Positions 7,910 through 49,757 of a DNA stretch of 64,000 nt are shown here, one piece after another. The notes below the pieces were generated by a model that did no database searches, had not been told where the DNA came from, and was given only the letters and a program-made list of their open reading frames with translations. The DNA comes from an uncultured Nitrospiraceae bacterium (GTDB lineage Bacteria > Nitrospirota > Thermodesulfovibrionia > Thermodesulfovibrionales > Dissulfurispiraceae). Positions within the stretch are counted from its first letter, which is position 1. Each line of letters starts with the position of its first letter. Position numbers and translations under genes: made by a program. The DNA lies in NCBI GenBank assembly GCA_963736105.1, contig CAVTNL010000001.1, positions 862,688 to 926,687 on the forward strand, read 5' to 3'.

Positions 7910-8144
7910 CGAATTACTCCTTCAATCTCCACTTTCGTGGGTAATGTGTGCCTCGGCAATGTTATCCGGCGGTTTCGCTTAAAGCGCCTGCTGTTGGGTG
8001 TGCAGACAGCACTGGCTTAACCCTTACACCTGTTTAACTGTCTGCCGCAGAGCTTGGGACTGGCAAGCATCCCGAGGTGCCTATGTATTCGCCGGTAACG
8101 TAGTTAATACAACACTGAGCCTGGTCAACTAGAGCATGCTTGAA
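7910..8144 (-). ncRNA. Candidate omega-RNA region upstream of iscB
   Basis: 235-nt non-coding gap 5' of iscB with multiple stable hairpins (CAGACAG...CTGTCTG at 8003-8044; GAGCATG...CATGCTC at 8131-8156). In IscB systems the omega-RNA is encoded directly upstream of the ORF. Confidence 0.4.
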
Positions 8145-8522
8145 TTAACACATGCTCTCGGTTTTAACCCCGAGTGGTTGACTGTAGCTTCCCGTGGCTA
8201 CATGACCGTTCCATGCTGTGATGCCTCCGTCCATACTGTAAATTTTAGAGAACCCCTGAGCTAATAAGAAAGCTGCTGCAGCCCGACTCCGGTTGCCACT
8301 CCTGCAGTATGTGAGAATTGGCCTAGTACGATCTAGCTCGCCCACTTTGTTTATGAGGTCTGGTAGCGGAATAAAAACAGCTCCTGGAAGATGGCCAGAT
8401 TTATACTCTTCAGGTTGTCGAACATCGAGAATAATAAATTCTGATCCCTTGTTGCCAAGCAATTCTTTTGCCTGGTCGACGTCCAGAGTTTCAATTTTAT
8501 TGCCTGCATTTATATCTTCCAT
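8145..8522 (-). CDS. Rhodanese-domain sulfurtransferase
   Basis: Single rhodanese domain with CRSGNRS active-site loop. Confidence 0.8.
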   Translation of the reverse strand: MEDINAGNKIETLDVDQAKELLGNKGSEFIILDVRQPEEYKSGHLPGAVFIPLPDLINKVGELDRTRPILTYCRSGNRSRAAAAFLLAQGFSKIYSMDGGITAWNGHVATGSYSQPLGVKTESMC

Positions 8523-12283: not shown

Positions 12284-12649
12284 TTGGCGAAGCGATGTAT
12301 CTATTGCGGGCGACATTTTACTCCTGATCGACGGCTGGGCGATCGGCAAAAAGCATGTAGCCGGGATCAGTGCAAGAAGAAACGCAAGCAAAGTGCCCAG
12401 CAGGCTTGGAACGTAAAGAATCCTGGATATTATAAAGGCCGCTACTGGTATGTGAAGGAATGGCGACAGCAGAAGCGCCAACAGAGTGCTGCCCTCCGGT
12501 CTCAGTCCATGATACAAGACGCGATACCCCCTTCAAAGTCATACCAGCAACTGGTTCTGCTGATACCGGACACGATAACAGGTGTGATACAAGACGAGAT
12601 ACGGCTGCGAAGGGTTGATAGTACTACGTTTACCGCCTATGGACCGTGA
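12284..12649 (+). CDS. Small basic Zn-ribbon protein (CxxC...CxxxxC), possible IS passenger or regulator
   Basis: 121-aa ORF inside the inserted element, upstream of istA. Lys/Arg/Gln-rich. The IstA-binding-like repeats lie in its 3' half. Confidence 0.3.
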   Translation: MAKRCIYCGRHFTPDRRLGDRQKACSRDQCKKKRKQSAQQAWNVKNPGYYKGRYWYVKEWRQQKRQQSAALRSQSMIQDAIPPSKSYQQLVLLIPDTITGVIQDEIRLRRVDSTTFTAYGP

Positions 12650-12725
12650 TACAAGACACGATGGACTACGGCAAAGTGCCGATGTAAACTTGGGAATCAC
12701 GACAAGCAAGGAGACAGCGGCCGAA

Positions 12726-14138
12726 ATGGAAGAATCACTTCAGAGCCGGGTACGGCATCTCTACCAAATTGAAGGATTGAGTCTGACCCAGGTAGGCAGG
12801 CAACTTGGCATATCCAGGAAGAAGGTTACCCGTCTCGTCCGACAGGATGATCTGCAAAGAAAGTCTTCAGAGACCGTAACTACTCCTTATGAACGACTGA
12901 TAGAGCAGTGGTACAAGGAATATCCGCTCCTCAAAGCCGTTCAGGTATTGGAACGACTGAAGAGCTATGGCTATGAGGGAGGGTATACAGCGGTAAAGGA
13001 ATGTACTCTTCAGTTCAGGAATAAGCGAAAGAACACCTCCTATCATGCTCTGGAGTTCCTTCCTGGAGAAGAAGCTCAGGTTGATTGGATGCAGCGGACC
13101 ATGCCTTTCGGCGTTGTTTACGGGTTTGTCTATATCCTGTCCTATTCGCGGTACCTCTACGCCCACTTCTATCTGAGGAGTTCCATGGAGTTCTTTCTGG
13201 ACGGCCACATAGAGGCTCTAAAGGAGATCGGAGGAATCGTCAGCAGACACACTTACGACAATCTCAAATCCGTAGTCATAAATAGAAAGCCCGTGATCAC
13301 ATACAATGCAAGGTTTGTGGACTTCGCCAGACATTATGGCTTTTCGATTCGTGCCTGCAATCCCGGCAAGCCCAATGAAAAAGGCAGAGTTGAGAGGGTT
13401 ATCAGGGACATCGAAAGCTTCCTCGTTGCCAACACCTTCAGTGATATCGGCGACCTCAACAGAAGACTCGGGCAGTGGCGGATACAGAGAAACAACAAGA
13501 TTCACCGGTCCCTGGGGATAACGCCCGCGGAGGCATTGAAACAGGAACGTCTCAGGAATCTTCCTCAGATCCATTACCTACCTTACCGGCAAGAGCCGGC
13601 GGCTATCAATAAGACATGCTTTGTGGAGTTCGACACCAACCGCTACTCGGTGCCGTCGCAGTACAGCAACAGGCCCTGTGACATCTTTGCTTATCCTCAT
13701 CAGATAGAAATCCTGGTTCAGGGCAAAAAGATAGCGACACACAACAGAGTATTCGACAGGAAACAAAAGATAGAACATCCTTCTCACCGCGAAAGGCTTC
13801 TCAATATCACTCCCCACTTCAAATACCAAAGGATGTACCAGCTCCTGAAGTCCATGGACAAAAACATCGAACACTTCCTCAGGCGGGCCGAACAGGAAGG
13901 ACAGGATCCTCTTGAGATCTCTTACGACCTGTTCAAACTGCTCAAAGGCATAGCCAGAGAGACGCTTATATCGGCGGTAAAGACCGCGATCAGCATCGAT
14001 ACATACAGAGTGACATATATCCAGGGGCTTCTAGGGCCTGCCGGTAATCATGACAATCCCGTGCATCCTCAGAACCATGGGCTGTTACACATCTCATATG
14101 AAGGGAGGCAGCTGAGCGACTATGATGAACTTATCTGA
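12726..14138 (+). CDS. istA: IS21-family transposase IstA (HTH plus DDE integrase core)
   Basis: N-terminal HTH (LSLTQVGRQLGISRKKVTRL). rve-like integrase core. Likely start at MEES (12726), not the upstream ATG at 12615. Confidence 0.85.
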   Translation: MEESLQSRVRHLYQIEGLSLTQVGRQLGISRKKVTRLVRQDDLQRKSSETVTTPYERLIEQWYKEYPLLKAVQVLERLKSYGYEGGYTAVKECTLQFRNKRKNTSYHALEFLPGEEAQVDWMQRTMPFGVVYGFVYILSYSRYLYAHFYLRSSMEFFLDGHIEALKEIGGIVSRHTYDNLKSVVINRKPVITYNARFVDFARHYGFSIRACNPGKPNEKGRVERVIRDIESFLVANTFSDIGDLNRRLGQWRIQRNNKIHRSLGITPAEALKQERLRNLPQIHYLPYRQEPAAINKTCFVEFDTNRYSVPSQYSNRPCDIFAYPHQIEILVQGKKIATHNRVFDRKQKIEHPSHRERLLNITPHFKYQRMYQLLKSMDKNIEHFLRRAEQEGQDPLEISYDLFKLLKGIARETLISAVKTAISIDTYRVTYIQGLLGPAGNHDNPVHPQNHGLLHISYEGRQLSDYDELI

Positions 14139-14799
14139 ACTGTGGAGACACTTCAGACTCCTTGCGGACCAGGAATCTCTGTCAAAAGAACAAAAGGAGT
14201 TCATGCTGAAGTTCCTCACCGAGGAGTATCAGCGCAAGGAACAAAAAAGAATCCAATATCTCATGAACATGTCCGGTATAAAAAGGACAAAGGTCCTCGA
14301 TGACTTCGACTGGAAATATAATCCTAAGATACCGAGGGACAAGATCCTGGAATACATGAACACGCAGTGGCTTAAGAAACCAAGCAACCTCATTCTCATA
14401 GGTCCTGCCGGCGTCGGCAAAACCCATGTTGCGACAGCACTATGTCACGATGCCCTGAGCAAAGGCCAGCAGACGGTCTTCCTGACACTCTTCGATCTCA
14501 CCGCCAAAATGGCGAAAGCCAAGAGCATATACAGCTTCATCGAATACCATTCAAGGGCAGCCGTTTGGTGTCTGGATGAGATTGGCTATGTGATCCCGAG
14601 CAAAGAACAGGCGGACTGCATCTTCCAGATAATCTCGAAAAGGGCAGAAGTGGGGACGACCATCGTCACCACTAATCTTGTGCCATCAAACTGGGGTAAG
14701 GTGTTCGACACCGTGACTGCGTCGGCGATTCTGGATCGGCTCAGCATGAGCGGAAGGTTCATCACCTTCGAAGGGAGGTCTTATAGGAGTAGACAATAG
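14122..14799 (+). CDS. istB: IS21-family helper ATPase IstB (AAA+, DnaC-like)
   Basis: Walker A GPAGVGKTH; overlaps the istA 3' end. Confidence 0.85.
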   Translation: MMNLSELWRHFRLLADQESLSKEQKEFMLKFLTEEYQRKEQKRIQYLMNMSGIKRTKVLDDFDWKYNPKIPRDKILEYMNTQWLKKPSNLILIGPAGVGKTHVATALCHDALSKGQQTVFLTLFDLTAKMAKAKSIYSFIEYHSRAAVWCLDEIGYVIPSKEQADCIFQIISKRAEVGTTIVTTNLVPSNWGKVFDTVTASAILDRLSMSGRFITFEGRSYRSRQ

Positions 14800-21853: not shown

Positions 21854-21976
21854 AGCATAGGCTTTAAGACATAAAGCGGGAATTCCCGGTAATTGATTGC
21901 CGGGAAGAAAGCGCCGCTGTTGGTTATTACAGTTCTTATTCTTGACAAACGTCCAGAATTGCTTTTAGATAGGAAG

Positions 21977-23533
21977 ATGCTCGAGTTATCTAACGATACA
22001 CCTACACATACGCGTGCTAAGGGCACCAAGAGGCCCAAACATACTGTAGTCACCCGTGCGTTTGATTTCCCCATGGAGGTAAGCGCAAAGCAGGCTGACC
22101 GGCTGTGGATGTGGGTCGGCGCTTGCTGGCGACTGCGCAATGACCTGGTTGCCGATCGCGCTGACAACCGTACAGCGAATAAGCTTCTTAAGCAGCAAGG
22201 TGTGACGGACATTCACTATCTCACTCAACCAGACCAGTATACGGCCATTCACGAATACGTCCTGCACGACACTGCACTCTCTAAAGTCCACAGCCAGGTC
22301 AGACAGAATGTGGCTGTTAGAGTTGCTGAAGGGTATAAACGGTTCTTCGAAGCTCTCAAAGAAGGGAAGACTGATGTCCACCCGCCCAAGTTCATCGAGC
22401 GAAAGAAGTACCGCAGCATCACCTTCCCGCAGTACGGTCCTGCTGCAAAAATCAAAAACGGCAAGATGCATCTTTCGGGCCTCGGAGAGTTTCGGCTGTT
22501 CGACTACCGCAAGGTCAAGGGGAAACCCAAGACCGTTACGATCAAGTTCAAGCAGGGCAGGTGGCACTGCGTAGTTACAGCCGAGGCCCAGGAGAAAGAT
22601 GTTCTGGATATGCTTATCTCTTCGGACTTTCGTCCTGACGCTGGGGCAGACACCGGACTGACTGCCTTGCTGACAGATTCCGAAGGCATCAAGTACGATC
22701 CGCCAAAAGCTTGGTACGATTACCGCAGAGGACTCCGGTCTGCACAAAAGAAACTGTCCAGGCAGTTTGAAACGAGAGAACTTGGATACAAGAATCAGGT
22801 TGAACTGGCGAAAGCTGCCGGTCGGCCAATCTCAGCACTCAAGGACATCCCCTATTCCAACCGGCTGAAGGCCCAGATCAAGGTTGTTGCCAAGATACAT
22901 ACCAAGATAGAGCGCATCAGGGACCATCACCACAAGAAGAATGCTTCAGTTATTTCGAATCGGTACCGCAAGGTAGCTGTAGAGGAGCATTCCGTGGGTT
23001 TTATGATCCGCAACCGGAAGCTTGCGAAAGTGGCTTCCGATCGGGCAATCCACAAGCAAAAGCTCCTGCTCAAGAGCAAGCTTGGTAACAAGCGGTACAT
23101 TGCGGAGCCAAACCAGACGGAGAACGGCGGCAACTCACAGACCTGCACCTGTGGTGCTCATGTCCCGAAGGAACTTTCAGACAGGGTCCACCACTGTCCG
23201 GCATGCGGGCTTACTGCCGGTCGTGACCATGTAGCGGCCAATATCGTAACAATCATAGCATTCGGATTTGCAAGTCTTACCCTGGGAGCGGGGTCACACT
23301 CTCCGGAGGCCGGGCAGGTCTTCGTCAGACGTGGAGAGGACAAGGCACTGCGTGGCGAATGCCATCTGTGCGAGTCGGAGGTCATCCCGGCTTCAGAGTC
23401 CTCCTGGAAGCGTCAACTTCTACAGGCGCGGGGACAAAGTACCACGGATGGGGAACCTACCGTGGAAGGCAAGACTTGTGAGCATCTTCAGGACACTCCG
23501 GAGTTGCCACATGAGCCGCAATCAGTCTGCTAG
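21977..23533 (+). CDS. tnpB: TnpB (IS200/IS605-family OrfB; RuvC-like nuclease with C-terminal Zn finger). The ORF is 3'-extended and probably reads through the omega-RNA/right-end region.
   Basis: N-terminal VVTRAFDFPMEVSAKQADRLWMWVGACWRLRND (OrfB N-term). Zn finger CTCGAHVPKELSDRVHHCPACG. RuvC-III RDHVAANI. No adjacent tnpA. Confidence 0.75.
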   Translation: MLELSNDTPTHTRAKGTKRPKHTVVTRAFDFPMEVSAKQADRLWMWVGACWRLRNDLVADRADNRTANKLLKQQGVTDIHYLTQPDQYTAIHEYVLHDTALSKVHSQVRQNVAVRVAEGYKRFFEALKEGKTDVHPPKFIERKKYRSITFPQYGPAAKIKNGKMHLSGLGEFRLFDYRKVKGKPKTVTIKFKQGRWHCVVTAEAQEKDVLDMLISSDFRPDAGADTGLTALLTDSEGIKYDPPKAWYDYRRGLRSAQKKLSRQFETRELGYKNQVELAKAAGRPISALKDIPYSNRLKAQIKVVAKIHTKIERIRDHHHKKNASVISNRYRKVAVEEHSVGFMIRNRKLAKVASDRAIHKQKLLLKSKLGNKRYIAEPNQTENGGNSQTCTCGAHVPKELSDRVHHCPACGLTAGRDHVAANIVTIIAFGFASLTLGAGSHSPEAGQVFVRRGEDKALRGECHLCESEVIPASESSWKRQLLQARGQSTTDGEPTVEGKTCEHLQDTPELPHEPQSVC

Positions 23534-23967: not shown

Positions 23968-24516
23968 ATGAACTCTTCAGTTGTCATTATTGCATTATTA
24001 ATATTTTCTCTGTTATATGGTTGTAATCACGAACCTGTACGTGATAGCTATGATGAGCCACTGCACTTGTCGGGAGATGCAACTCGTGACTCTTATCAGA
24101 CGATCGAGAAGGCTGTGTTTTACAAAGATCTTCTGTCGCAGATTAATCGCTATAGAGCGCACAACGGGCTGAAAACCCTTGCCTTCGACAAGAAACTAAC
24201 AGCAATCGCCAAGAACCACAGCGTTGAGATGAGCAAGAGTCGAGTGCTCAGCCATAACAATTTTGATCAGCGGTACGACCAATCTAGACATACTAGCTGC
24301 GTTGAGAATATCGCAAAAGGCTACAGCAACCCTAAAGAACTGTTCTTGGCTTGGAAGAATTCGAAAGGACACGACAAGAATATGTTATCCAAAGACATTC
24401 AGATAGCTGGAATCTCAATGAATGGGCTATATGTAACATTTTTTGCCTGCAACACTCAAATAAAAACACACGCTGTCGGCCAACGAGTTGCATATGATGA
24501 TCATAAAAAAGATTGA
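23968..24516 (+). CDS. CAP-domain (SCP/PR-1-like) lipoprotein
   Basis: Lipobox LLYGC; CAP signature residues (HN..R..H, H.H, EN, W..S.GH..NML). Confidence 0.6.
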   Translation: MNSSVVIIALLIFSLLYGCNHEPVRDSYDEPLHLSGDATRDSYQTIEKAVFYKDLLSQINRYRAHNGLKTLAFDKKLTAIAKNHSVEMSKSRVLSHNNFDQRYDQSRHTSCVENIAKGYSNPKELFLAWKNSKGHDKNMLSKDIQIAGISMNGLYVTFFACNTQIKTHAVGQRVAYDDHKKD

Positions 24517-25262
24517 TTCCACTTCGCTATCGATTTAACGCCTCTTTGATAGACCTAGTATGCTGCTGATTCTTATAAAAATACGCGGAGTTAAGAAGAT
24601 TCTGACTCTGTTTGACAACGGAATGACTTCCGATAATTAGATTCCGCAAACTATTGATAATACCTCTTCTCTAAGGTCGGGCGTTTTTATAATAATGGAA
24701 TTGATTGTCGTCGGATTGCCTAATTATTTCCTGCGGTTTGGGAGCCGCGCTCTGCAAAACGAGGCTGCTTCCTTCGGTGCGGAAAATGGTTTGCTGGGTT
24801 TGGGATTATTATGGCAGTATGCATTTTCGGAAATAAGCATCTTATCCGCCAATTCACCAGTTTATTAGCAGTATATGCGCCAATTCCTTGCAGAGTTATG
24901 CGCCAAAATAGATCGCAAGTCGTTGGTTTCCCTAGAGGTGAAATTGCAACTTATGCGCAATCCCATAGATGATTCTGTTTTATCTTAGAAGCTGCAATTT
25001 GTGCCATTAAAACTGCAATTAGTAACATTGAAATAGCTAGAGCATTAAGTGGGATGGTAGCGACAGCTGTCTGCATTGTCTTTTGCATAGTGGCAAAGCA
25101 GCGCGTAAGTGATATTTGTACTGAACAAAAGATGTGTTTTGATGGGGTGCTCAAGGTTTGGAGTTATGGCAGCAACGGTCTGAAATCTATTATAAACTTG
25201 TGCTATGATTGTGGAAAGGATTGAGCATATTGGCATATGTGAAATGAAAAGCGACTATTAAG

Positions 25263-28200
25263 ATGCTTCTTCGCGACAAAACACAGCGTCTATTTGAGTA
25301 TATCAGCCAAGTATATGCGATTGATCTGCCTATCAACCGGGATGTACGTAAATACGGGAATGAACTTTGGTGGCAATCTGATATCATCTCCTCAGCACAA
25401 TGTAAAATTAAGAATTTTATCGAAAGCACCAATGCAATAAGCGATGAGCAGAGTGATGAATTAGCCGATGAAAAATGGCTCTCTGTTACAAAACGTTCCT
25501 ATGATGAACCTCCTCAGTTACCTTCAATCATAAGAGAGTGGGTTGACCTTTCTCCCATTCCTTCAAAAATCCCGGCACCAAAGCCTTCAATCCCGAAGGT
25601 AATATCTTTTGATTCAGACTCCCGACGAACAGATGCTTTTAAAAGATATGCGGAATCTCTGAGAATCTGGAAAGCAGCGGGAAAGGGGAAGACAACCCCT
25701 CCGATACCGGAAAGCCTTCGTGGTTGGATTGATTTATCACAATTGGCTAAACCTCCTTTCAATTTAGCGTCTTTTGACAAACGTGAAATTATCCAGCAGT
25801 TCGAGGATGATAAGAACAGAGTCGAGGCACTGAAGAATTATATTGAAGGGCCTTGGATACTATGGTCCGAGAGGGTACTACCTCTTTTTAAAGCAAATAT
25901 GCTGTACGATCAACTTTTCTCGCTCTACCAGAGACTGAGCGTGGAGGGTGACCGTATCGAGATTGTTTGGGGACATCTTTTCCTGTCGTGGCATCACAGC
26001 GCTGACAACGATATATATCATCCTTTAGTAGTTACCCCGATGAACTTGCATTTTGAACCCATACACCGAACTATTAGCTTAGCTCCGAGTCAGACCATTT
26101 CAACAAAGTTGGATTTAGATTGCCTTACTAACCTTGACTACCCGTCTAAAGATAAACTCATAAAGTATGCAAGAATAGTAAATGCTGGTGAACCAGTGGT
26201 CGACAGCGGGGATATGTCACTCGATGCTTGGAACCATACTCAAATGCGATGGTGTTCCGCCACTATTACCGGATTTCTAAGCAATGAAAGTGCTGATAAA
26301 TCGAATTTATACGTGGCAAATGATATGCTGCGTCCACCGACGACGGACTATCCTGCAATTTACAACGCACCGGTGATTTTTATTCGTGAGCGTACTCGCC
26401 GATTGTGGGTAGACGATGCTAAGAAAGTGGCGGAGGCTGTCCAAAACGGTTCAGAGATTCCGCCCTTTATTGGTTCTCTTACGGCAGATCCGCAGACTAG
26501 CGAACTGCCAAATCCTGATGATTACAAAGACTACACAGGCAAAGACGAAGATGAAGGTGAACATTTATTACCGCTTCTTTACAACGACCAGCAAGAGGAA
26601 ATCGTTAAAAAATTAAAGGGACATTATGGGGTCCTTGTTCAAGGCCCGCCAGGGACAGGAAAGAGCCACACAATAGCAAACATCGTCAGTTCATTACTTG
26701 CACGCGGGAAACGAGTGCTAGTAACTAGTCAAACGGAGAATGCCCTAAAAGTATTGCGAGACTATATTCCCCCGGAGATTAGAAGCCTTTGTGTCAGCCA
26801 ATTGGGAAATGATACTGAGTCCAAAAGGCAGCTCGGGGAGGCGGTCGAGTCGATTGGCAATCACATGTCAGAAAAGGACAGTTCGGCAGTAGAACAGAAA
26901 ATACAACAATTAAAAGAAGAACTGAGAATGTTACGGGAAGAGCAGGCTCAACTTCGCAACAAGATAAAGGATTGGGTAAAAATAGATTCCTGGCATGTAC
27001 AAATAGGTGAGGAGATTGTCAGTGCGTATGCGGCTGCACGATACTGTGCGGAAAATGTGTCAGAGCACGCCTGGTTCCCCGATAGCCTTTCACCGGAAAC
27101 TGAGCCTCCATCAAATAACGAGGAATTGATAGAGATGTGTTCTCTGGTTAAGGAGCTATCACCAGCGGATAGAAAGGCCTGGGGACAGTACCTTCCTGAT
27201 CCAACCAATCTTCTGCAGCCTAAAGATTTTGCAGAAAAGATTTCTGAACTTAAGGCTCTTTTAGAGCTTTTAGTCGAATCAGAGAATTTAAGAGATCACT
27301 GGGATGAGAGAATAAATAAAACAGAACAGCAAGATGTTAAAAAGATAATCTCGATACTAGAAGCAGCCTTGTCCGAATTTGAAAAGATGAAAGATTCTTG
27401 GCAATTCAAGATCTTGGAACTGATAACTACAGAAAAGAACCAGCATGATTATTGGCAGAATGTATTACAGATGTGTGAGAATTATCGTAATTCTGCGTGG
27501 CAGTCTTACCAGCTGATTCAGGATTGCCAAATCGAAATTGGTGGACTATCGCCCGATTTAGAAGTGAATGCTGCGCTTGAGGAACTGGATAGACTCATCT
27601 CAAAGGGCAGAAAGCCAACTGGTCTGATAGCTAAGTTAACGCTTTCAAAGGCTGCCAAGGAAGTCTTTCGTAAAGTAAAGGTTGATGGACGTCAGCTACT
27701 CACTTCCGAAAGAGTAAAAGTCGCCAAAGCACATTGCTCGTATACGTCTCAAATCACGAAAATATACACTGTATGGGAGAAAACTATCGGTGCTGTTGAT
27801 GGATGTGTTTTAGACCGAGGGAACTTGATGCCTCTAGCCGAAATAGATGAAAAGATAAAGTGGTTACGTTACCCTCTTCAATGGAAGAACGGTCATTATA
27901 GGACTCTGGAGAGTGTCCTGACACATGCTGGATGTCAAGAACAGGCTTTCTATACGCATGAGGTTCTCGTCAGTGCTCTTAAAGTATTGAAGAGCCGGCA
28001 AGCTGAAATAGCACAGCAGGCTATCGAGGAGAAGCTGTCAGAATACGCAAGTTTTCTTGCAAATGAGTCCAAAAAAGAGAATGCCCACGTGCTATGGCAG
28101 ATGCTTTCCGAAGCTGTTAGGAGGCGCTCACTTGTTGAATACGTGCAAGCCTATGATGAGTCGGTGCGACTCCTACGTGTTGGCAAAAAGGTAAGGAGGC

Positions 28201-29945
28201 TCGAAAAGCTAGCTGGTAGACTTAGCAACGTTGCCCCGAAGTGGTGTGACTCGCTTTTTGAAAAGGCACTTGAAATCGGTTCCAATGCTTTGGAAAAGGA
28301 TTGGTTACTAGCATGGAAATGGCGTCGGCTGGATGAATGGCTAAGCAGTCTTCACAATAGAGAAAGTGTAGAAAGTCTCCAGAACAAATTGGAAAGAGCG
28401 AGAAAAAAGGAAAGCGCCTTACTAGTGCATCTGGTTAAAGAAAGAACTTGGCAGAGGCAGCTCGCAAACGTAAAGGAATATCACTACAGGTCCCTAACAA
28501 CATGGGCAAATGCAATGCGCCTTTACGGAAAAGGAACTGGCAAGAATGCTCAACGTTATCTATTAGCGGCAACGAAGGCTATGGCAGATGCGGTTGGTGC
28601 GGTACCAGCATGGGTCATGCCGCTACATAGAGTGGTGCAATCATTCCCTGCAGAACCCGGTGTTTTTGACGTGATCATTGTTGATGAGTCGAGTCAGTGT
28701 GATCTAAGAGCTTTGCCAGTTTTGTTTAGGGGAAAGAAAGTATTGGTTGTTGGCGACCCGGAACAAATAAGTCCGTCTCATGTTGGGATTGAAAGAGACA
28801 AGGTTTTTCAACTGAACAGACACTATCTCTCTGATATACCCAACTCCGATATAACATTTGTAATTGACAATAGCCTTTACAACATTACAGAAGTTATGGG
28901 CATAAGCCGCACTCTTCTTACCGAACATTTTCGCTGCGTGCCACATATTATTGGATTCAATAATCATTTATGCCCAAGTTATGCTGGCAAACTCGAACCC
29001 TTACGTCAACCAAACCCACAAGAGATGCTTGAACCTGCTATTGTTACTAAATTCGTAGAAAAAGGGTTTAAAGATAACAATGATGTAAATAGGCCAGAAG
29101 CAGAAGTCTTAGTCGAGGAATTGATGAATTGTTGCAAGAATGATCTTTATTCAAGTGGGGGTAAGGACAATCGGAAACGGACAATGGGGGTTATATCGCT
29201 TCTTGGAGAGAAACAAGCAAAGTATATTTCGGAACTTATTGCGGAGAGGCTTGATGAGACTGAAAGAGCAGAACGCAGAATTATATGCGGTGACGCTTAT
29301 GCTTTTCAGGGGGATGAACGAGATGTTATGTTCCTTTCGTTGGTGGTTGCGCCGAATGCACCATTTGCCTCGCTGGTAAGAGATGCGGATAGACAGAGGT
29401 TCAATGTTGCTACAAGCAGAGCGAGAGACCAGGTGCATCTTTTTCATTCTGCTAGGTTAGATGATATAAAGAATCCATCATGTGTCAGGTATAAGTTGCT
29501 GAGTTGGTATCTGAACCCCCCGATAGCAGAGATGACTGCTGGAATTGAGATATTAAAGAAAAGAGCAGAAAGTGAATTCGAGATCGAAGTTGGCGGGCGT
29601 ATAATAAGTAGGGGTTACAAGGTCATTCCACAGTTTTGCCCATTCCCAAGTGATTTCAATTATCGGATTGATCTAGTTGTCCAAGGGGATACGACTCGTG
29701 TGGCTGTTGAATGCGATGGTGACCGTTGGCATGGAAGTGACAGCTGGGAATATGACCAGCGCAGAGAAGCACAGTTACGACGTGCGGGTTGGAAATTTTG
29801 GAGGATAAGCGGAAGTTTCTTCTACCGAAATAAGGGAAAGTCATTAGATGCGCTCTGGAAGTTCTTAGAGGAAGAAGGCGTTAACCCAATTTCTTTGAAA
29901 ACGGAAGGAGATTATCCACGGACTGCGAATCAAGAAAAGGAGTAG
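25263..29945 (+). CDS. Large (1560 aa) SF1 DNA2/Upf1-like helicase with an unassigned N-terminal region (DUF4011-like) and a C-terminal DUF559-like PD-(D/E)xK endonuclease domain
   Basis: Walker A VQGPPGTGKSHT (about aa 461). Motif II VIIVDESSQCD (about aa 1136). Motif III VVGDPEQISP. Motif V GDAYAFQGDERDVMFLSL. Motif VI NVATSRARDQVHLF. C-terminal YRIDLVVQGDTTRVAVECDGDRWHG...EYDQRREAQLRRAGWKFWRI. About 680-aa coiled-coil-rich insert between motifs I and II. Confidence 0.8.
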   Translation: MLLRDKTQRLFEYISQVYAIDLPINRDVRKYGNELWWQSDIISSAQCKIKNFIESTNAISDEQSDELADEKWLSVTKRSYDEPPQLPSIIREWVDLSPIPSKIPAPKPSIPKVISFDSDSRRTDAFKRYAESLRIWKAAGKGKTTPPIPESLRGWIDLSQLAKPPFNLASFDKREIIQQFEDDKNRVEALKNYIEGPWILWSERVLPLFKANMLYDQLFSLYQRLSVEGDRIEIVWGHLFLSWHHSADNDIYHPLVVTPMNLHFEPIHRTISLAPSQTISTKLDLDCLTNLDYPSKDKLIKYARIVNAGEPVVDSGDMSLDAWNHTQMRWCSATITGFLSNESADKSNLYVANDMLRPPTTDYPAIYNAPVIFIRERTRRLWVDDAKKVAEAVQNGSEIPPFIGSLTADPQTSELPNPDDYKDYTGKDEDEGEHLLPLLYNDQQEEIVKKLKGHYGVLVQGPPGTGKSHTIANIVSSLLARGKRVLVTSQTENALKVLRDYIPPEIRSLCVSQLGNDTESKRQLGEAVESIGNHMSEKDSSAVEQKIQQLKEELRMLREEQAQLRNKIKDWVKIDSWHVQIGEEIVSAYAAARYCAENVSEHAWFPDSLSPETEPPSNNEELIEMCSLVKELSPADRKAWGQYLPDPTNLLQPKDFAEKISELKALLELLVESENLRDHWDERINKTEQQDVKKIISILEAALSEFEKMKDSWQFKILELITTEKNQHDYWQNVLQMCENYRNSAWQSYQLIQDCQIEIGGLSPDLEVNAALEELDRLISKGRKPTGLIAKLTLSKAAKEVFRKVKVDGRQLLTSERVKVAKAHCSYTSQITKIYTVWEKTIGAVDGCVLDRGNLMPLAEIDEKIKWLRYPLQWKNGHYRTLESVLTHAGCQEQAFYTHEVLVSALKVLKSRQAEIAQQAIEEKLSEYASFLANESKKENAHVLWQMLSEAVRRRSLVEYVQAYDESVRLLRVGKKVRRLEKLAGRLSNVAPKWCDSLFEKALEIGSNALEKDWLLAWKWRRLDEWLSSLHNRESVESLQNKLERARKKESALLVHLVKERTWQRQLANVKEYHYRSLTTWANAMRLYGKGTGKNAQRYLLAATKAMADAVGAVPAWVMPLHRVVQSFPAEPGVFDVIIVDESSQCDLRALPVLFRGKKVLVVGDPEQISPSHVGIERDKVFQLNRHYLSDIPNSDITFVIDNSLYNITEVMGISRTLLTEHFRCVPHIIGFNNHLCPSYAGKLEPLRQPNPQEMLEPAIVTKFVEKGFKDNNDVNRPEAEVLVEELMNCCKNDLYSSGGKDNRKRTMGVISLLGEKQAKYISELIAERLDETERAERRIICGDAYAFQGDERDVMFLSLVVAPNAPFASLVRDADRQRFNVATSRARDQVHLFHSARLDDIKNPSCVRYKLLSWYLNPPIAEMTAGIEILKKRAESEFEIEVGGRIISRGYKVIPQFCPFPSDFNYRIDLVVQGDTTRVAVECDGDRWHGSDSWEYDQRREAQLRRAGWKFWRISGSFFYRNKGKSLDALWKFLEEEGVNPISLKTEGDYPRTANQEKE

Positions 29946-30267
29946 CGATTAGGACAAGATTCCTCTAAGGCGGAACCGGATGGCAAGGACGGCTTTACTG
30001 AAGATGGGTTTGATGCAATTGATAGAACTGAGAGCGAAATCATCAGGATTTTACGGAAAAAGGTCCAATGCCAGTCAACAAGATTGCTCAGGAATTGAGC
30101 ATTTGTTGACAAAAAACTGACGGGATCTATTCCATGTCGCTATCATTGCGGTTGCCAGATCCATGCGGCTGTCGAACTTCCTACTTATGCTCATCGCCTT
30201 AGCGATAGGCTGATTATGCGAGCTTTCTACCGGCAATCATCGGCTGTACTGGGATATATATAACGTG

Positions 30268-30597
30268 TCACAAGTTTCTAATATATCGAAGAGTCAAAAA
30301 TATATTGATTGCTAAGGGTAGGCCAAATGCAGCCAGATGAACTGCCCAGATAGAGAAATTGTTCTGCGCTGATTTACTGTATGGAAGCAAAGTTGCCGTG
30401 CTCAGATAGATGAGGCTGGAAAGTGTGAGCATCCATCCACCAAATCTATTGGCAGAATACCAGACCCGATCGTCTGCCATGGTTTTAGCTGTTCGGATAC
30501 CGTACCAACGATTCTTCGGAACCACACCTAGAATGAGCGGTATCGAGGCAACTAAGAAAATTACAGCCGGCACGATGAACGGTGAATGAATCATCAT
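30268..30597 (-). CDS. SdpI/YhfL-family membrane protein (immunity-protein-like)
   Basis: VPKNRWYGIRTAKTMADDRVWYSANRFGGW matches the SdpI consensus (PxNxWxGxRT...W). About 3 TM helices. Confidence 0.5.
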   Translation of the reverse strand: MMIHSPFIVPAVIFLVASIPLILGVVPKNRWYGIRTAKTMADDRVWYSANRFGGWMLTLSSLIYLSTATLLPYSKSAQNNFSIWAVHLAAFGLPLAINIFLTLRYIRNL

Positions 30598-30991
30598 AAG
30601 TACGCGGATGATAACGCATTTCTATCTTGCCTGTCGATTTCTATCGAGTTGCGTATTATCCTTGTTTGCACAGATCTCGGGTACTACTCATAACAAACAT
30701 ATCTAATCATCCTGGTTATTATAGTGAGTACAATCGGAAGGCGTGAATGTTCATGCTGTTTTCCCCCTCTTAGGTGATACTCTTCTTGTAGTTAAGCGAG
30801 TCAGCCGATATTATCCATATCTGGAGGCAAGAAAATGGCTACGCTTATGGACAAAATGGCCTGATTAGTCTAAAATCAAGCACAGAGAAGGGGAATCGAG
30901 AATTAAATAGCTATTGAAAATAGTCAGGCTTAGAGATTCATAATATTGTGGCAAATCAAAGGTAAATGCAGCCAATAATTATGGAGGCACA

Positions 30992-33010
30992 ATGGAAAGT
31001 ATTTTACATTTTATCGGCGTACTTTCAGTAGGTGGACTATTAATAGGGATTTTGGCGTTAATCTCGGCGTATCAATCAGTTGTTATTGTCGGCGGTAAAG
31101 AGATTGCTCTTATTGAACGGAGGTGGTTAGGTAAGAAGATGCCCCAAGGCAGGGTTGTTGCCATGAACGGCGAAGTTGGCATTCAGGCAAGGACACTTGG
31201 TCCAGGCATGCATTTTCTTTTTCCGTTTATTTATACTGCAAAAAAGAGCGAGTTTGTGGAGATTATGGACGGAAAGGTTGGTCTTATCGAGTCAGTCGAT
31301 GGCGGCCCAATCCCGCCTGGGAAAATATTCGCAAAAGTAATACAGGGACATAATTCTTTTCAGGACGGAGAGGCGTTCCTGCAAAACGGAGGTCAGAAAG
31401 GTCCTCAAATTGATATTCTCCCTCCTGGTAAATACAGAATCAATCCTTATCTATTCAAGGTATCGATAGCTAATGCAGTTGTTATTGAAAAGGGACAGGT
31501 GGGTGTTGTTACATCGCAAGATGGCAACCCTATAGCATCCGGGAGACTGTTGGCAGCCAGTGTGCCTGACCATCATAATTTTGAAGACGGTGAAAAGTTT
31601 CTCACGAATGGCGGCCAAAAGGGTCCACAGCTAGATATCCTACTCCCGGGCACATATCGTATCAACCTTCATTTATTCCAAGTGGCGACTGAGCCGGCCG
31701 CAGTGATTGAGTCTGCCAAAGTTGGCTTGGTTACAGCCAAGGACGGAGATCCACTCCCTGAGAAAGAATATGTTGCCAAATCAGTAGCCGGACACTCCGA
31801 TTTTCAGGATGCTAATGCCTTTCTTAAAGGCGGCGGACAACGTGGCCCGCAGCTTGATGTTCTTAAACCCGGCACCTACTATATAAACCCATTAATGTTT
31901 AATGTCGCTTTTGATGATGTTGCAGTTGTTGAGCGTGGACAGGTTGCCGTTGTCGTTTCGAACGTAGGTGAAGAGCCAACGGCTGACATGAAGAAACGAC
32001 TCGGCTCGACTCAAATGGGGGCTACCGAAGAAGAAGGCAAAGAGAAATATGTGGTTCCCAAAGGATATAGAGGAATCCAGGAAGAAGTGGCCGGCCCTGG
32101 CAAATACTATCTTAATAGGTTAGCCTTTATGCCCTATATCATCGACACAACTAACATTACTATAGACTGGGATGACTCAAAAGAGACAAGGTTTGACCCA
32201 TTGAGTGTTATTTCAAAAGACGGATTTCCTATCGGCGTGTCAGTTAAAGTAGTTGTAAGAGTCAGACCAGATCAGGCTCCTTATATGGTTGCCAAAGTCG
32301 GCTCGATTGACAACCTCATTCTTCACGTTATTCATCCAATGATTGATTCCAGTTTCAGAAATCAAGCATCAACAACTTCAGCCATGAACTTTATGCAGGA
32401 CAGACAAGAAGAACAGACAAAGGCTGAAACAAGGGCTCGGATGGAACTTGAAAAGTATCATGTTGAGTGTGTGTCAGTCCTTATTTGTCAGATAAAACTT
32501 CCACAGGAGCTGATGGATACACAGACAAAGAAAATTATTGCTCAGCAACAGACTGAACAGTACACGGAACAGCAGAAGGCTGAAGTTACAAGGATTGAGA
32601 TGGAAAAGACTAAGGCCACAGCTGACCAACAGCCGGAACTTGTTCGGGCGGAGATTGCAGTCAAAGTTGCCGATCAAAAGAAAAGGGAGACAGTTACACT
32701 CGCCGAAGGTAACGCTGAAAGTGCAAGACTTAAAGGCGAAGGTGATGCCAAGGCAATCGAGTCAATTGGTACGGCTACCGCAGAAGCCTATGAAAAGCAG
32801 AAAACAGCCATTGGGCCGCAGGCCATTATGGCTATCGAACTTGCAAAACATATCGCTACGGGCAAGATTAAGATTATGCCTGATATTCTTACAATCGGCA
32901 GTGGCGGCGCATCTGAAGGGCTCGCGACCGTGCTTACTCAGGCTATTGCTCTGAGTGGTATGAAGATTGACGCTAGCAAGGCCGCTGTCAAACAAACGAC
33001 AGATTCATGA
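30992..33010 (+). CDS. Flotillin/SPFH (band-7) family membrane protein with five tandem SPFH-N-like repeats and a C-terminal coiled coil
   Basis: N-terminal TM. Repeated roughly 72-aa unit of the form G.VGVV...DG.P......A..V.GH..FQDGEAFL.NGGQKGPQ.DIL.PG.Y.IN. The flotillin-like EA/Q-rich coiled coil QQQTEQYTEQQKAEVTRIEMEKTKA.... Confidence 0.7.
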   Translation: MESILHFIGVLSVGGLLIGILALISAYQSVVIVGGKEIALIERRWLGKKMPQGRVVAMNGEVGIQARTLGPGMHFLFPFIYTAKKSEFVEIMDGKVGLIESVDGGPIPPGKIFAKVIQGHNSFQDGEAFLQNGGQKGPQIDILPPGKYRINPYLFKVSIANAVVIEKGQVGVVTSQDGNPIASGRLLAASVPDHHNFEDGEKFLTNGGQKGPQLDILLPGTYRINLHLFQVATEPAAVIESAKVGLVTAKDGDPLPEKEYVAKSVAGHSDFQDANAFLKGGGQRGPQLDVLKPGTYYINPLMFNVAFDDVAVVERGQVAVVVSNVGEEPTADMKKRLGSTQMGATEEEGKEKYVVPKGYRGIQEEVAGPGKYYLNRLAFMPYIIDTTNITIDWDDSKETRFDPLSVISKDGFPIGVSVKVVVRVRPDQAPYMVAKVGSIDNLILHVIHPMIDSSFRNQASTTSAMNFMQDRQEEQTKAETRARMELEKYHVECVSVLICQIKLPQELMDTQTKKIIAQQQTEQYTEQQKAEVTRIEMEKTKATADQQPELVRAEIAVKVADQKKRETVTLAEGNAESARLKGEGDAKAIESIGTATAEAYEKQKTAIGPQAIMAIELAKHIATGKIKIMPDILTIGSGGASEGLATVLTQAIALSGMKIDASKAAVKQTTDS

Positions 33011-34793: not shown

Positions 34794-36273
34794 CCCAGAA
34801 TTGTCATTAGAGATGAGAAGTGAATGAAACGGGCAGATCAAAATCTTTTGATTTGCCCCAGAGCCCCTCAAACCATTGCCGTCGTCGCATCGCCAGGCAA
34901 AGCTTAAGAATACGTCTATTCCCATCTTTGACTAAGTAGCCGCCGGCAGCAAATATCTTGTATCGCATTGTCTTTAAAGTTGGTTGGACCTTACTGCACA
35001 AGACCACCTGGCGAAACAGACTCATCAGGTTATAGGCAAGCATTACGCAGTTCATTGCTGTTTCAGTGGCGCTGAAACTTTGCATATTGAAGCTGTCAGC
35101 ACCAAAGTCATACTTCAGTTCCTTGATCCGGGTTTCAGCATCCGCTGGCAGCCGGTAGATTTTCCATACAAGATGAGCGGGAAGCTCCAGGCTAGTAACA
35201 AAACAGCCATATCGATAGTCCCTGATCTCCACTTCCTCTGCAAACAATCTCAACACTTTGCCAGTTGCCTTCGGCCTTCTGGAAACCCGCTGTCGCACCA
35301 TGACCATTCTGCGCTCTTTACCCCAGCCATTGGCCCCGTAAAGAACTGAAGCCACTTCTATGCCCTCTTCAACCTCAAACCACTGCCGATGCGCCGCAAG
35401 CATGCGTTGCACAGGCGCATGTAGTCGTGTCGCAATAATATAGGGGATTGTATGCTGAGGTTCCTCAAGATACTCCAGTATAGTCTTCTGGTAAAAACCG
35501 CTATCTGCGCGCAACAGACCAACCTTCTTGCCGGCAAGGTGCTCAAGAGTGTCTTGCAGAAATCCCTCAAAGTTATTTGCCGTATGAGCATCGCCAGATC
35601 TCAGCCAGCAGTTGGCGACCATTCGGCAATCTGCAACAAATGCGAGCAGTGGATGATGGGAGTTTCTTCCAGGCTTCCGCGGATTGTACCCGCGACGAGC
35701 CCCTTCCTGTTGCCCGTACCGACTCATAACCGTTGAGTCCAAATCCAAGGTGAAGTTATCAAAATGCAGGTGCTCAAAAAACCACCGATAGAGCTCCTGA
35801 AACACTCTCTGGTTCGTTGCTTGCCCAAACTTCCTGAAATATCTTTGAACTGACTTATGCCCGGCCATACGTCTGTAATCAAATATCTTCCGTATCGCTT
35901 CATCATACCGAGTGACTTCCAAATGCTCAAATCGGTTGGCTCCGCACCACACGCTTACTAGAAACTGTTCTATCAGTTGTTCAGGTGCATACCCCCGATT
36001 GGAACCTTGCATCGGCAGTGCTGCCCGCTTTAATGCTCCCCGAAAGTCCATTTTCCCAAGCATCCGGTTCATTAGCGCCATGCCGCCCCATGGGGTTATT
36101 TCTTTGTCGCTAAAGCTCAGCTCAGGCTCTCGTGCCATGTATCGGTTCCTTACGCCATTTTCGCTTCCGATTGTGCCAAAGGCATTGAAATATCTTATCG
36201 CTTTTTCAGTAACTTATCCAGACCATTTCCTAATGGCGGCCATTAGAAATCCTTGGCTAATGACAATTCTGGG
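34794..36273 (-). mobile_element. IS1380-family insertion sequence, copy 1 (1480 bp)
   Basis: Perfect 17-bp terminal inverted repeats: CCCAGAATTGTCATTAG (34794-34810) and CTAATGACAATTCTGGG (36257-36273). Single 443-aa DDE transposase. Flanks are ATAAA (left) and TTAAT (right). Confidence 0.8.
34807..36138 (-). CDS. IS1380-family DDE transposase
   Basis: LDLDSTVMSRYGQQEGARRGYNPRKPGRNSHHPLLAFVADCRMVANCWLRSGDAHTANN matches the IS1380/ISEcp1 transposase core. Confidence 0.85.
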   Translation of the reverse strand: MAREPELSFSDKEITPWGGMALMNRMLGKMDFRGALKRAALPMQGSNRGYAPEQLIEQFLVSVWCGANRFEHLEVTRYDEAIRKIFDYRRMAGHKSVQRYFRKFGQATNQRVFQELYRWFFEHLHFDNFTLDLDSTVMSRYGQQEGARRGYNPRKPGRNSHHPLLAFVADCRMVANCWLRSGDAHTANNFEGFLQDTLEHLAGKKVGLLRADSGFYQKTILEYLEEPQHTIPYIIATRLHAPVQRMLAAHRQWFEVEEGIEVASVLYGANGWGKERRMVMVRQRVSRRPKATGKVLRLFAEEVEIRDYRYGCFVTSLELPAHLVWKIYRLPADAETRIKELKYDFGADSFNMQSFSATETAMNCVMLAYNLMSLFRQVVLCSKVQPTLKTMRYKIFAAGGYLVKDGNRRILKLCLAMRRRQWFEGLWGKSKDFDLPVSFTSHL

Positions 36274-39886: not shown

Positions 39887-40061
39887 CAAGCCGGTAGCTT
39901 AGGGTGTTGATAGATTGCTGCAACTCATTGTTAAATTGCGACAATGAAGGCATAATCAATCAGGATAAATCTTATGCAGATACCATAGCCCCAAAGCTTT
40001 GATATTGTAGCGTTAAAGGCATAGAAGGATAATTTTATCAACACCCTAAGCTACCGGCTTG
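39887..40061. mobile_element. MITE-like 175-bp element with 26-bp perfect TIRs and a 9-bp target-site duplication
   Basis: TIR CAAGCCGGTAGCTTAGGGTGTTGATA (39887-39912) against its reverse complement TATCAACACCCTAAGCTACCGGCTTG (40036-40061). Flanked by direct repeats TATTCCGTT (39878-39886 and 40062-40070). No ORF inside. Confidence 0.6.
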
Positions 40062-40325
40062 TATTCCGTTAGAGGTAGCCTACTTTCCTGAATAAAGTGC
40101 GGAAAGGAAAATGGTAATCTGGCCTGAAAGGCCTAATCAGCGCCGTGAGGCAATGAGATATCTGCCCCATGTATATTTGAGGGAAGAAATGTACCACATT
40201 CATATAATGAGAAATTTTGGTGTGACCGAAGATAGGGTTCATCTGTCTTTCGATAAATTATTGCAGCATTTATGAATAACTAGACATCGCTGCTGTGCCT
40301 CGGTTTATATGATAATATAAACCAT

Positions 40326-49105: not shown

Positions 49106-49757
49106 ATGGCGCTGTCTTATCTGGTCATACTTTATGAATTTGTTTGTTGTAGTCAGGAAACGATTAATAGCATGAGGGTATAGCGCATGATCGCATCGGC
49201 TAAAGGGTTGGGGTGGTTCTAGCTGTGTCTTTAGATTATCGCAATACTAATTTTCAATGTCTACCAAAATAAAAGTTGAGTTGTATCCTAGCCGAACCGC
49301 GACAAGTCAAGACTATACAATCTGTTGACGATTCTCAAAAAAAATCATCACCATTTCAGACTCTTTTGAAAGAAGGAATACTGTGAGCCGGCAGTGAGCG
49401 TAGAGATATTTCTCGATGCGAGGTTAGTAGGAAATCAACGATAGTAAATAATCGCCCAAATCGATAGCTTCTTGGGTATGCCGTGTAAAACGTATGACTA
49501 GTCGGTTAAAGTCCGACCGCGGGAGTTCGGTGGTTCACCCGCGTAGCTAGAGGGAGGTGTGAAGAGCAATCTAAAGCACTAAGTTTCCTGACAAAGGCTC
49601 CGAAAGGGAGCTGAGCGAACCTGCGGGTCGCAGCGATTGCGAACCCAGATGTAGCCTCGAAACATCGAAACGGAGTTGCCGACCCTGTCACAGAAAGGGG
49701 AAGGCCGTTGCATCTATCCTAACGCAAACTACCGCAACCGATAGATGAACTTCCGGG

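Follow-up and report, generated by a model that had tools for sequence, protein, structure and literature searches.

A 1560-residue helicase-nuclease from a Dissulfurispiraceae genome: a candidate anti-phage effector distantly related to Hhe and ProA

The helicase-nuclease gene and its parts

The window analyzed here is a 64,000-nucleotide (nt) stretch of DNA from an uncultured Nitrospiraceae bacterium (assembly GCA_963736105.1, contig CAVTNL010000001.1, positions 862,688 to 926,687 of the forward strand), and the subject of this analysis is a single gene located within it at 25263..29945 (+). The gene was found to be an uninterrupted open reading frame (ORF) of 1560 codons running from ATG to stop (ORF list and translation), and its product combines a superfamily 1 (SF1) helicase, split by a very long helical insertion, with a C-terminal endonuclease. 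It is a distant relative of single-protein anti-phage systems such as Hhe and ProA, and we lean toward regarding it as a defense gene. Hhe was reportedly described by Gao et al. in 2020 as a DUF4011 domain-containing anti-phage protein. An identical protein was retrieved by exact-sequence look-up (NCBI MGO9380096.1, encoded on a 1.93-Mb contig of a metagenome-assembled genome assigned to Dissulfurispiraceae, Nitrospirota), and it carries no name beyond "AAA domain-containing protein". An earlier reading, made from the letters and translations only (hereafter the sequence-only reading), had described a 1560-amino-acid (aa) single-gene helicase-nuclease, and this description was confirmed.

An ORF of such length with these motifs cannot be of chance origin, and full-length homologues were collinear with the helicase-nuclease at 34–64% identity. 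Conservation values were calculated from a family alignment of 109 sequences (the query and 108 homologues, each of at least 1400 aa), in which the catalytic residues of the helicase and nuclease were 96–100% conserved. Two AlphaFold2 models (aa 1–440 and aa 430–1560) were built on 69-sequence alignments. The parts of the gene and its flanking signals are as follows:

25166..25209 (+): two overlapping promoter-like sites, 54–97 nt 5' of the ATG (consensus matches only)
25263..29945 (+): complete helicase-nuclease gene (ORF list, translation, exact look-up, collinear homologues)
25263..26582 (+): N-terminal module, aa 1–440, without a Pfam, NCBIfam or PADLOC domain
25509..25847 (+): tandem duplication of a unit of ~50 aa, aa 83–131 and 145–195 (local alignment versus shuffles)
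25872..26078 (+): helix and beta-hairpin, aa 204–272, WGHLFLSW...PLVVTPMNL (hhalign, AlphaFold2)
26580..26810 (+): first part of RecA1, aa 440–516, with Walker A and motif Ia (Pfam AAA_11, AAA_30, AAA_19; AlphaFold2)
26643-26666 (+): Walker A, GPPGTGKS, aa 461–468 (K467 100% conserved)
26811..28598 (+): all-helical insertion in RecA1, ~595 aa, aa ~517–1112 (AlphaFold2; nearly gap-free in the family)
28599..29462 (+): remaining RecA1 and RecA2, aa 1113–1400, with motifs II, III, V and VI (Pfam AAA_12, Foldseek, phmmer)
28683-28688 (+): Walker B DE, aa 1141–1142 (100% conserved)
29577..29867 (+): Vsr-like PD-(D/E)xK endonuclease (MTES_1575), aa 1439–1535 (Pfam PF18741)
30085..30101 (+): terminator-like hairpin, 140 nt past the stop codon (consensus match only)

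The promoter-like sites upstream and the hairpin downstream are consistent with a monocistronic unit. Within the 90% cluster of the window protein, members of 715 aa and 576 aa (P0243 and P0244) were located on one 15.6-kb European Nucleotide Archive contig, and a frameshift, insertion or assembly error may have split the gene in that other sample.

Motor and insertion

A split AAA_11 domain starting at aa 440 and an AAA_12 domain at aa 1204–1393 were identified with Pfam. The SF1 motifs were located where the sequence-only reading had placed them, with motif I (GPPGTGKS) at aa 461–468 and motif II (DVIIVDESSQ) at aa 1136–1145, and were accompanied by motif Ia (VLVTSQTENA, aa 485–494), motif III (VVGDPEQ, aa 1162–1168), an EHFRC motif (aa 1221–1225), motif V (AFQGDERD, aa 1347–1354) and motif VI (NVATSRAR, aa 1381–1388). 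K467, D1141/E1142 and Q1145 were conserved in 100% of the aligned sequences, and conservation of motif III, EHFR, motif V and motif VI ranged from 91 to 100%.

In the model of aa 430–1560 (predicted local distance difference test, pLDDT, 81.5), the strands and helices of RecA1 extend to approximately aa 516 and are followed by ~595 aa of long helices up to approximately aa 1112, many of them 30–38 residues long (pLDDT mostly 86–92). The strand preceding motif II, the remaining RecA1, RecA2 and the nuclease core come after this insertion. The coiled-coil-rich giant insert predicted earlier was thus borne out, with a spacing of 674 aa between K467 and D1141. The insertion was nearly gap-free across the family alignment, fell inside one aligned stretch against the ProA and PDC-S37 profiles, and aligned in its distal third with MkoC. 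No PDB structure matched it when the AlphaFold2 model was searched against the PDB, and no significant profile match to the insertion of Hhe was obtained (hhalign, P = 0.31).

Foldseek searches with the helicase core returned Senataxin (E = 5.6e-10), UPF1 (2.9e-09), Sen1, DNA2 and IGHMBP2 at E values up to 3e-7, and Aquarius, nsp13 and ZNFX1 were also among the matches up to ~1e-5. A phmmer search against PDB sequences agreed with this result (Sen1 5mzn, E = 7e-08), and DNA2 was matched in sequence at the P-loop only (E = 0.0087). These matches identify the core as that of an Upf1-like superfamily 1B (SF1B) helicase, and the features that define this superfamily (motifs I, Ia, II, III, V and VI on a RecA1/RecA2 fold) were all present. 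Upf1-like SF1B helicases translocate in the 5'->3' direction.

Endonuclease

The C-terminal Vsr/DUF559-like nuclease of the sequence-only reading was recovered at aa 1439–1535 as Pfam PF18741 (MTES_1575), matched over the whole profile (positions 1–96 of 96; 80.4 bits, cut-off 38.2, E = 1e-22); DUF559 itself was a weak second match (E = 0.0047). The MTES_1575 family has been defined as a restriction endonuclease of the Vsr fold (PMC3710099). With a score above the gathering threshold and its acidic residues kept, the domain belongs to this Vsr-like group, and the AlphaFold2 model of its core has the order alpha-beta-beta-beta-alpha-beta. No degeneration of the nuclease motif was seen; D1470, E1483 and D1485 were 96–97% conserved, and the active site is predicted to be intact.

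N-terminal module

The first 440 residues, a module conserved in the family, were modeled as a confident fold (pLDDT 87.9; predicted template modeling score 0.76), for which no relative was found in the PDB and no domain in Pfam, NCBIfam or PADLOC. A duplicated unit of ~50 aa, with the motif P.(L/I)P..(I/L)R.W(V/I)DLS ... F..D..R..A.K.Y.E, was detected by local alignment with a score of 75, which was reached by none of 2000 shuffles (mean 25.3, standard deviation 4.9, maximum 54).

The sequence-only reading had called this region DUF4011-like, and at most a short segment fits the label. DUF4011 (PF13195) was not matched by the window protein in Pfam at E <= 1 and was present in none of the 120 listed homologues (precomputed Pfam). 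A DUF4011 N-terminal profile of 124 sequences (Hhe, 120 homologues and three plasmid proteins) was compared by hhalign with the N-terminal profile of the helicase-nuclease family, with and without 55 added distant relatives. A single match in constant register was obtained, pairing approximately aa 204–272 with Hhe 212–288 (P = 0.024, 0.015 and 0.0023 in three profile versions; match width 59–64 columns); in the best version, aa 214–272 were paired with Hhe 222–288 at P = 0.0023. Mismatched control pairings gave P values of ~0.3. The aligned segment, which contains the residues quoted in the sequence-only reading, is a helix followed by a beta-hairpin (WGHLFLSW...YHPLVVTPMNL versus LALGFLEW...YAPLFTIPV), corresponding in the AlphaFold2 model to a helix at 184–228 and strands at 232–246, 249–265 and 270–275. 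For the first ~200 residues no similarity to Hhe was detectable. The ~60-residue match may be read as a remnant of common ancestry, which is plausible but unproven.

Matches to named families

NCBIfam and PADLOC profiles placed the window protein nearest to families labeled as anti-phage or as phage-defense candidates. The NCBIfam ProA profile (NF058533.1) was matched with 172.4 bits (E = 1e-50; cut-off 1500), aligning aa 425–1534 to profile positions 635–1702 in one stretch, and the best PADLOC match was PDC-S37 (PDLC05009, 1550 positions; 163.2 bits, 1.9e-48), aligning aa 444–1537 to profile positions 298–1340. Per residue, the PDC-S37 score appears to be that of a distant relative. Hhe was matched by NCBIfam (NF042953) with 116.6 bits against an equivalog cut-off of 2000, the best stretch being aa 1089–1535, and by PADLOC (PDLC02194) with 81.4 bits over aa 1111–1535. 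Lower PADLOC scores were obtained for MkoC and MkoA, with the helicase and distal insertion matched. Taken on sequence, the window protein appears to be distantly related to the anti-phage helicase-nucleases without belonging to any of these families.

A comparison set consisting of true Hhe (Klebsiella pneumoniae plasmid, 1911 aa) and three DUF4011/DUF3320 proteins was aligned with the query by BLASTP, and similarity was found only around Walker A and at aa ~1111–1541; Hhe and the window protein were 24.8% identical over aa 1131–1537. The spacing between Walker A and Walker B was 939 aa in Hhe, 633, 636 and 628 aa in the DUF4011/DUF3320 proteins, and 674 aa in the window protein, which indicates that the giant insert is common to the Hhe/DUF4011/DUF3320/ProA group and is not peculiar to the window protein.

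Occurrence of the family and its variable tails

In a word-index search 120 relatives were listed, 108 of which were at least 1400 aa long with the layout of the query (34–64% identity). Those with a source name were mostly from Nitrospirota, Planctomycetota, Thermodesulfobacteriota and Blastocatellia (Acidobacteriota), together with a Thermoplasmatota archaeon, and among the 120 listed the best homologue outside the query's own 90% cluster was 64% identical. In an exhaustive phmmer search of the N-terminal 440 aa against 1.84 billion cluster representatives, 626 clusters passed E <= 1e-3, of which 112 also passed 1e-10 and 22 passed 1e-30. Full-length matches measured ~1400–1990 aa and had the domain at or near the N-terminus, with aa ~170–420 as the widely shared part.

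More distant relatives (20–28% identity) were found in a one-genome-per-species scan in Clostridium, Bacillus, Virgibacillus, Streptomyces, Actinoplanes, Pseudomonas, Acidobacteriota and others. Six of these scanned by Pfam/NCBIfam and six by PADLOC had the same layout and sub-threshold scores for ProA (204–240 bits), Hhe and PDC-S37 (188–226 bits); none of the six scanned by PADLOC was a close member of PDC-S37. Phage genomes were nearly devoid of relatives (four weak matches in 50,697 records). Plasmid relatives were found in 506 records, many conjugative or mobilizable; most are Hhe or DUF3320 proteins matched in the C-terminal third only. The gene is rare, stand-alone and patchily distributed, which is accessory behavior.

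C-terminal tails were scored in 85 family sequences with a recognizable end of the nuclease motif. Of these, 42 end within 60 residues of the nuclease, as does the query, and the remainder carry 120–200 extra residues of at least four unrelated kinds, clustered as 30 of one kind, seven GreA/GreB-like (P0051, P0057, P0061, P0063, P0067, P0092 and P0096), three of a third kind and two of a fourth. The GreA/GreB family domain PF01272 was present in eight listed homologues (precomputed Pfam), seven of them in one tail cluster, and one tail was matched to E. coli GreA residues 72–155 (BLASTP against a manually entered GreA sequence, E = 7e-07). A LuxR-type helix-turn-helix (HTH) was found at the C-terminus of one distant relative. 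Truncation of the window protein relative to homologues of 1650–1690 aa was considered and rejected, given that no tail remnant lies downstream and half of the scored sequences have no tail.

Neighborhoods of homologues and distant relatives

The contexts of 11 close homologues were examined; two of them (P0070 and P0083, 89% identity) share flanking genes, so that the 11 contexts count as ten distinct neighborhoods. No partner gene was conserved across the 11, and the pattern of a core gene in a housekeeping neighborhood was not seen. The flanks were mostly ordinary genes (a ribosomal operon, gyrA), and the homologue itself occupied a variable islet of small size. MNT/HEPN or HepT pairs adjoined the homologue in 2 of 11 contexts and a DUF433/DUF5615 pair was nearby in one; PLDc_2 or YhcG/DUF1016 nucleases adjoined it in three and a Bro-N protein in one. 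In three contexts the homologue was located within elements carrying serine recombinases, replication genes or an excisionase-like HTH. Beside one of the closest homologues (64% identity; L098 600–9600) was a gene cluster for peptidases of the trypsin-like and caspase-like types, an HNH nuclease and a pair of PRTase-CE and ORC-CDC6-like proteins, a group that looks like a conflict-system island.

A YhcG/DUF1016 gene of the PD-(D/E)xK type was positioned directly 3' of the helicase-nuclease in two of the 11 contexts (L010 15020–16003 and L088 15060–16166) and could be a recurrent companion or a coincidence. A conserved small upstream partner gene was also considered and rejected, the small ORFs beside the window gene and five homologues being mutually dissimilar; the two small ORFs in the window look spurious.

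Among distant relatives that share the architecture, those on two Acinetobacter plasmids (L086 7383–12113 and L091 8449–13179) start 64 nt after brxL of a type 1 bacteriophage exclusion (BREX-1) system. In Virgibacillus litoralis (L053 9779–14518) the relative was located downstream of PglX and PglZ homologues with one 1058-aa ORF between, and others were near type I restriction-modification (RM) genes, with a DUF262 type IV homologue just upstream in a Bacillus locus. The sequence-only reading had suggested checking such neighborhoods for defense genes, and these were found among the neighbors when 28 loci of such distant relatives were scanned. In the two nearest ORFs on each side, 243 PADLOC models were matched at E <= 1e-10, including HmaA/B, DrmD and DrmA. 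In ORFs 6–10 kb away, chosen as a control, 83 models were matched, among them PglX/DrmMI (E = 0) along with enzymes of types IIG and IV.

The surrounding window

The neighbors of the window gene encode a TnpB-like protein, a member of the CAP family, a small membrane protein of the SdpI family and an SPFH/Band-7 protein, as well as dioxygenases, an IS4-type transposase and an aldo-keto reductase. Among these, the SdpI-family, CAP and SPFH proteins are not phage-defense markers. GC content at third codon positions (GC3) was 0.41–0.46 in four genes at 23968–33010 (0.41 in the helicase-nuclease itself) and 0.48–0.68 in 24 of the 31 other ORFs measured. The AT-rich island of the sequence-only reading is modest; seven other ORFs also have GC3 <= 0.46. 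The shared low GC3 fits acquisition as one block, and the four genes may have arrived together. This block (23968–33010) holds the CAP-family gene, the helicase-nuclease, the SdpI-family gene and the 672-aa SPFH/Band-7 protein, in which ~350 residues without an assignment precede the Band_7 domain.

The window is rich in mobile elements, and no tRNA or other integration landmark was found in it. An IscB-type gene of 439 aa with RRXRR and HNH domains (6590–7909, -) has a full-length HEARO/omega RNA directly 5' of it (7941–8182, -; 128 bits versus a gathering score of 83), and together (6590–8182) they look like an intact RNA-guided nuclease element. A TnpB-family ORF of 546 aa (21893–23533, +) scored 124 bits with NCBIfam guided_TnpB (cut-off 100); its frame continues ~60 residues upstream of the match and no adjoining TnpA was seen. 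Group II intron RNA was identified on the + strand as D1D4-4 (49499–49638), D1D4-2 (50859–50973) and domain V/VI (52583–52658), with ORFs between, and as a separate borderline D1D4-7 match (40057–40184, +); the domains may represent one or two introns, possibly nested or degenerate. Transposase genes include a 443-aa DDE_Tnp_1_4 (IS4-type) transposase (34807–36138, -) and an IS21-type pair (12615–14799, +) composed of an integrase-core gene with a Mu-transposase C-terminal domain and IstB; an ORF of the same length as the IS4-type gene (443 aa; 60049–61380, -) may be a second copy of it.

Interpretation

We consider it slightly favored over its negation that the product is a helicase-nuclease akin in kind to the anti-phage proteins Hhe and ProA, encoded by a gene that stands alone and moves horizontally. 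The candidate defense effector of the sequence-only reading is partly supported, through its best database relatives (ProA, PDC-S37, Hhe and the Mokosh helicases), and receives no support from the context of the window; the case for defense is based on relatives elsewhere, not on this locus. In such a role, the N-terminal module and helical insertion would recognize a nucleic-acid structure characteristic of an invading phage or plasmid, or would control access to it; candidates include free ends, flaps, and intermediates of replication or transcription. The motor would then translocate 5'->3' along one strand, driven by ATP, and this translocation would deliver or activate the C-terminal endonuclease, which would cleave the DNA of the invader or, as an abortive response, possibly that of the host. 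The interchangeable C-terminal tails, present in about half of the close homologues and absent from the window protein, would probably serve as adaptors.

Several observations weigh against this reading. The curated cut-offs for ProA (172 versus 1500 bits) and Hhe (117 versus 2000 bits) were not reached, and Pfam does not identify the N-terminal module as the DUF4011 domain that Hhe carries. The TnpB and SdpI-like genes had been offered in the sequence-only reading as evidence of a defense context and do not serve as such, as none of ten neighbors had a PADLOC match except TnpB, through its similarity to Cas12f. The neighbor scan lends qualitative support only, since the far set of ORFs is in defense islands too and the comparison is confined to these loci, and any enrichment is to be read accordingly. 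The shared flanks of P0070 and P0083 indicate some vertical stability. In P. aeruginosa, a related large DUF4011 gene belongs to the core genome of every isolate (PMC10250203), and not all relatives are accessory on that evidence. Finally, the substrate, polarity and trigger are all inferred.

Two of these points, shared flanks and the P. aeruginosa core gene, would also suit a housekeeping or stress DNA-repair enzyme of the host, engaged in end resection, in processing of flaps or stalled forks (DNA2/AddAB-like) or in R-loop removal (Senataxin-like) and not in immunity. The core is structurally closest to Senataxin/Sen1, Upf1, DNA2 and IGHMBP2, the nuclease has the fold of the Vsr repair endonuclease, and the window gene is chromosomal, amid ordinary genes. 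We nevertheless judge a repair role unlikely: the gene is rare and patchy, its GC3 is atypical, no neighborhood is kept across phyla, it recurs on plasmids, in integrative elements and beside BREX, RM and toxin-antitoxin genes, and its best-scoring named families are anti-phage. Improbable to a similar degree is that the gene is cargo serving mobile elements, either as a weapon between plasmids, integrative elements or prophages, or as an addiction or abortive module harming the genome of its host when the element is lost or challenged. Family members in recombinase-bounded elements with replication and regulatory genes, the 506 plasmid records (many conjugative or mobilizable), the toxin-antitoxin pairs adjoining in some contexts and the position of the window gene between a TnpB element and an IS4-type transposase all point that way, yet most chromosomal contexts examined have no element boundaries and no cognate antitoxin or immunity partner is conserved. 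A cargo role also overlaps strongly with defense, from which it is inseparable by sequence alone.

An enzyme of RNA or transcription complexes, a Sen1/Upf1-like 5'->3' translocase that tracks nascent RNA or binds polymerase and cuts at transcription bubbles or R-loops, is suggested by the top structural matches (Senataxin, Sen1 and Upf1 act on nascent or aberrant RNA), by a weak Foldseek appearance of the RNA-polymerase-binding HelD, and by the GreA/GreB-like tails of some homologues. We regard this role as very unlikely for the window protein, which lacks such a tail (GreA/B-type tails make up only 7 of the 85 scored); its nuclease family has a DNA endonuclease fold, Upf1-like cores also act on DNA (DNA2), and polymerase binding is hypothetical. 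A related and equally speculative extension of the defense reading, to which we give little credence, is a distinct single-gene immunity family in which the N-terminal module would be a new sensor and swappable tails would target cellular machines. GreA/B-like tails would dock on RNA polymerase so that the Sen1-like motor and Vsr-like nuclease could destroy transcribed foreign DNA, and the window protein would be the minimal form.

If the preferred reading of a Hhe/ProA-like defense gene is correct, the window protein would belong to a rare subfamily of the Hhe/ProA group to which the PADLOC and NCBIfam models used assign no named family, and which occurs mainly in poorly studied phyla (Nitrospirota, Planctomycetota and Acidobacteriota). 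The classification of bacterial immunity would be unchanged even then. A compact member of this kind could help to show how single-protein systems distinguish foreign from self nucleic acid, and its useful features in that respect are the confidently modeled N-terminal module, the well-ordered helical insertion and the swappable C-terminal adaptors of the subfamily.

Comparison with known systems

Senataxin/Sen1, Upf1, IGHMBP2, DNA2 and Aquarius resemble the window protein in the RecA1/RecA2 core fold and motifs, whereas the eukaryotic Upf1-like proteins have neither the ~595-aa helical insertion nor a C-terminal Vsr-like nuclease. In DNA2 the nuclease is N-terminal and of a different PD-(D/E)xK family, whereas that of the window protein is C-terminal. 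Nhi is reportedly a staphylococcal nuclease-helicase immunity system (Bari et al., in 2022), and both Nhi and Mokosh resemble the window protein in combining a nuclease with an SF1 helicase, the known systems acting in anti-phage defense. The likeness to Nhi and DNA2 drawn in the sequence-only reading concerns function alone. The PADLOC matches at E <= 1 included no model for Nhi, DNA2 was matched in sequence only at the P-loop, and the arrangement of those enzymes, with the nuclease N-terminal to the helicase (an Fe-S PD-(D/E)xK domain in DNA2, a nuclease domain of its own in Nhi), is not that of the window protein. Mokosh systems use a phospholipase D (PLD) nuclease, encoded in three genes in type I and in one fused gene in type II; the match here was to the helicase only, and no PLD domain was found in the window protein or its neighbors.

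ProA is the best-scoring named family, with an unbroken alignment from just before Walker A, across the insertion, to the end of the nuclease. It differs in that its first ~634 profile positions are unmatched and in its length (1903 profile positions versus 1560 aa). No paper describing ProA or PDC-S37 was found in a literature search, and ProA is cited here as a database label only. PDC-S37, a single-gene phage defense candidate of PADLOC, covers the same region as ProA (helicase, insertion and nuclease), likewise with the N-terminal region unmatched.

Like the window protein, Hhe is one large polypeptide that carries an Upf1-like SF1 helicase, a very long insertion and a C-terminal MTES_1575 nuclease, and the layout that characterizes it (AAA_11/AAA_12 split by a long insertion, followed by MTES_1575) was found in the window protein. 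The window protein differs from Hhe, which is ~350 aa longer, in having no Pfam DUF4011 and no DUF3320 tail. A literature search returned no mechanistic study of Hhe-type enzymes. The statement in the sequence-only reading that this architecture has no experimentally assigned function is correct for the subfamily only, as the validated Hhe has the same giant spacing and nuclease. The kind of system, a single protein with an SF1 helicase and a Vsr-like nuclease, is known, giant insert included; the new element is a divergent unnamed subfamily whose N-terminal module is unrecognized by Pfam or the PDB and whose C-terminal tails are swappable.

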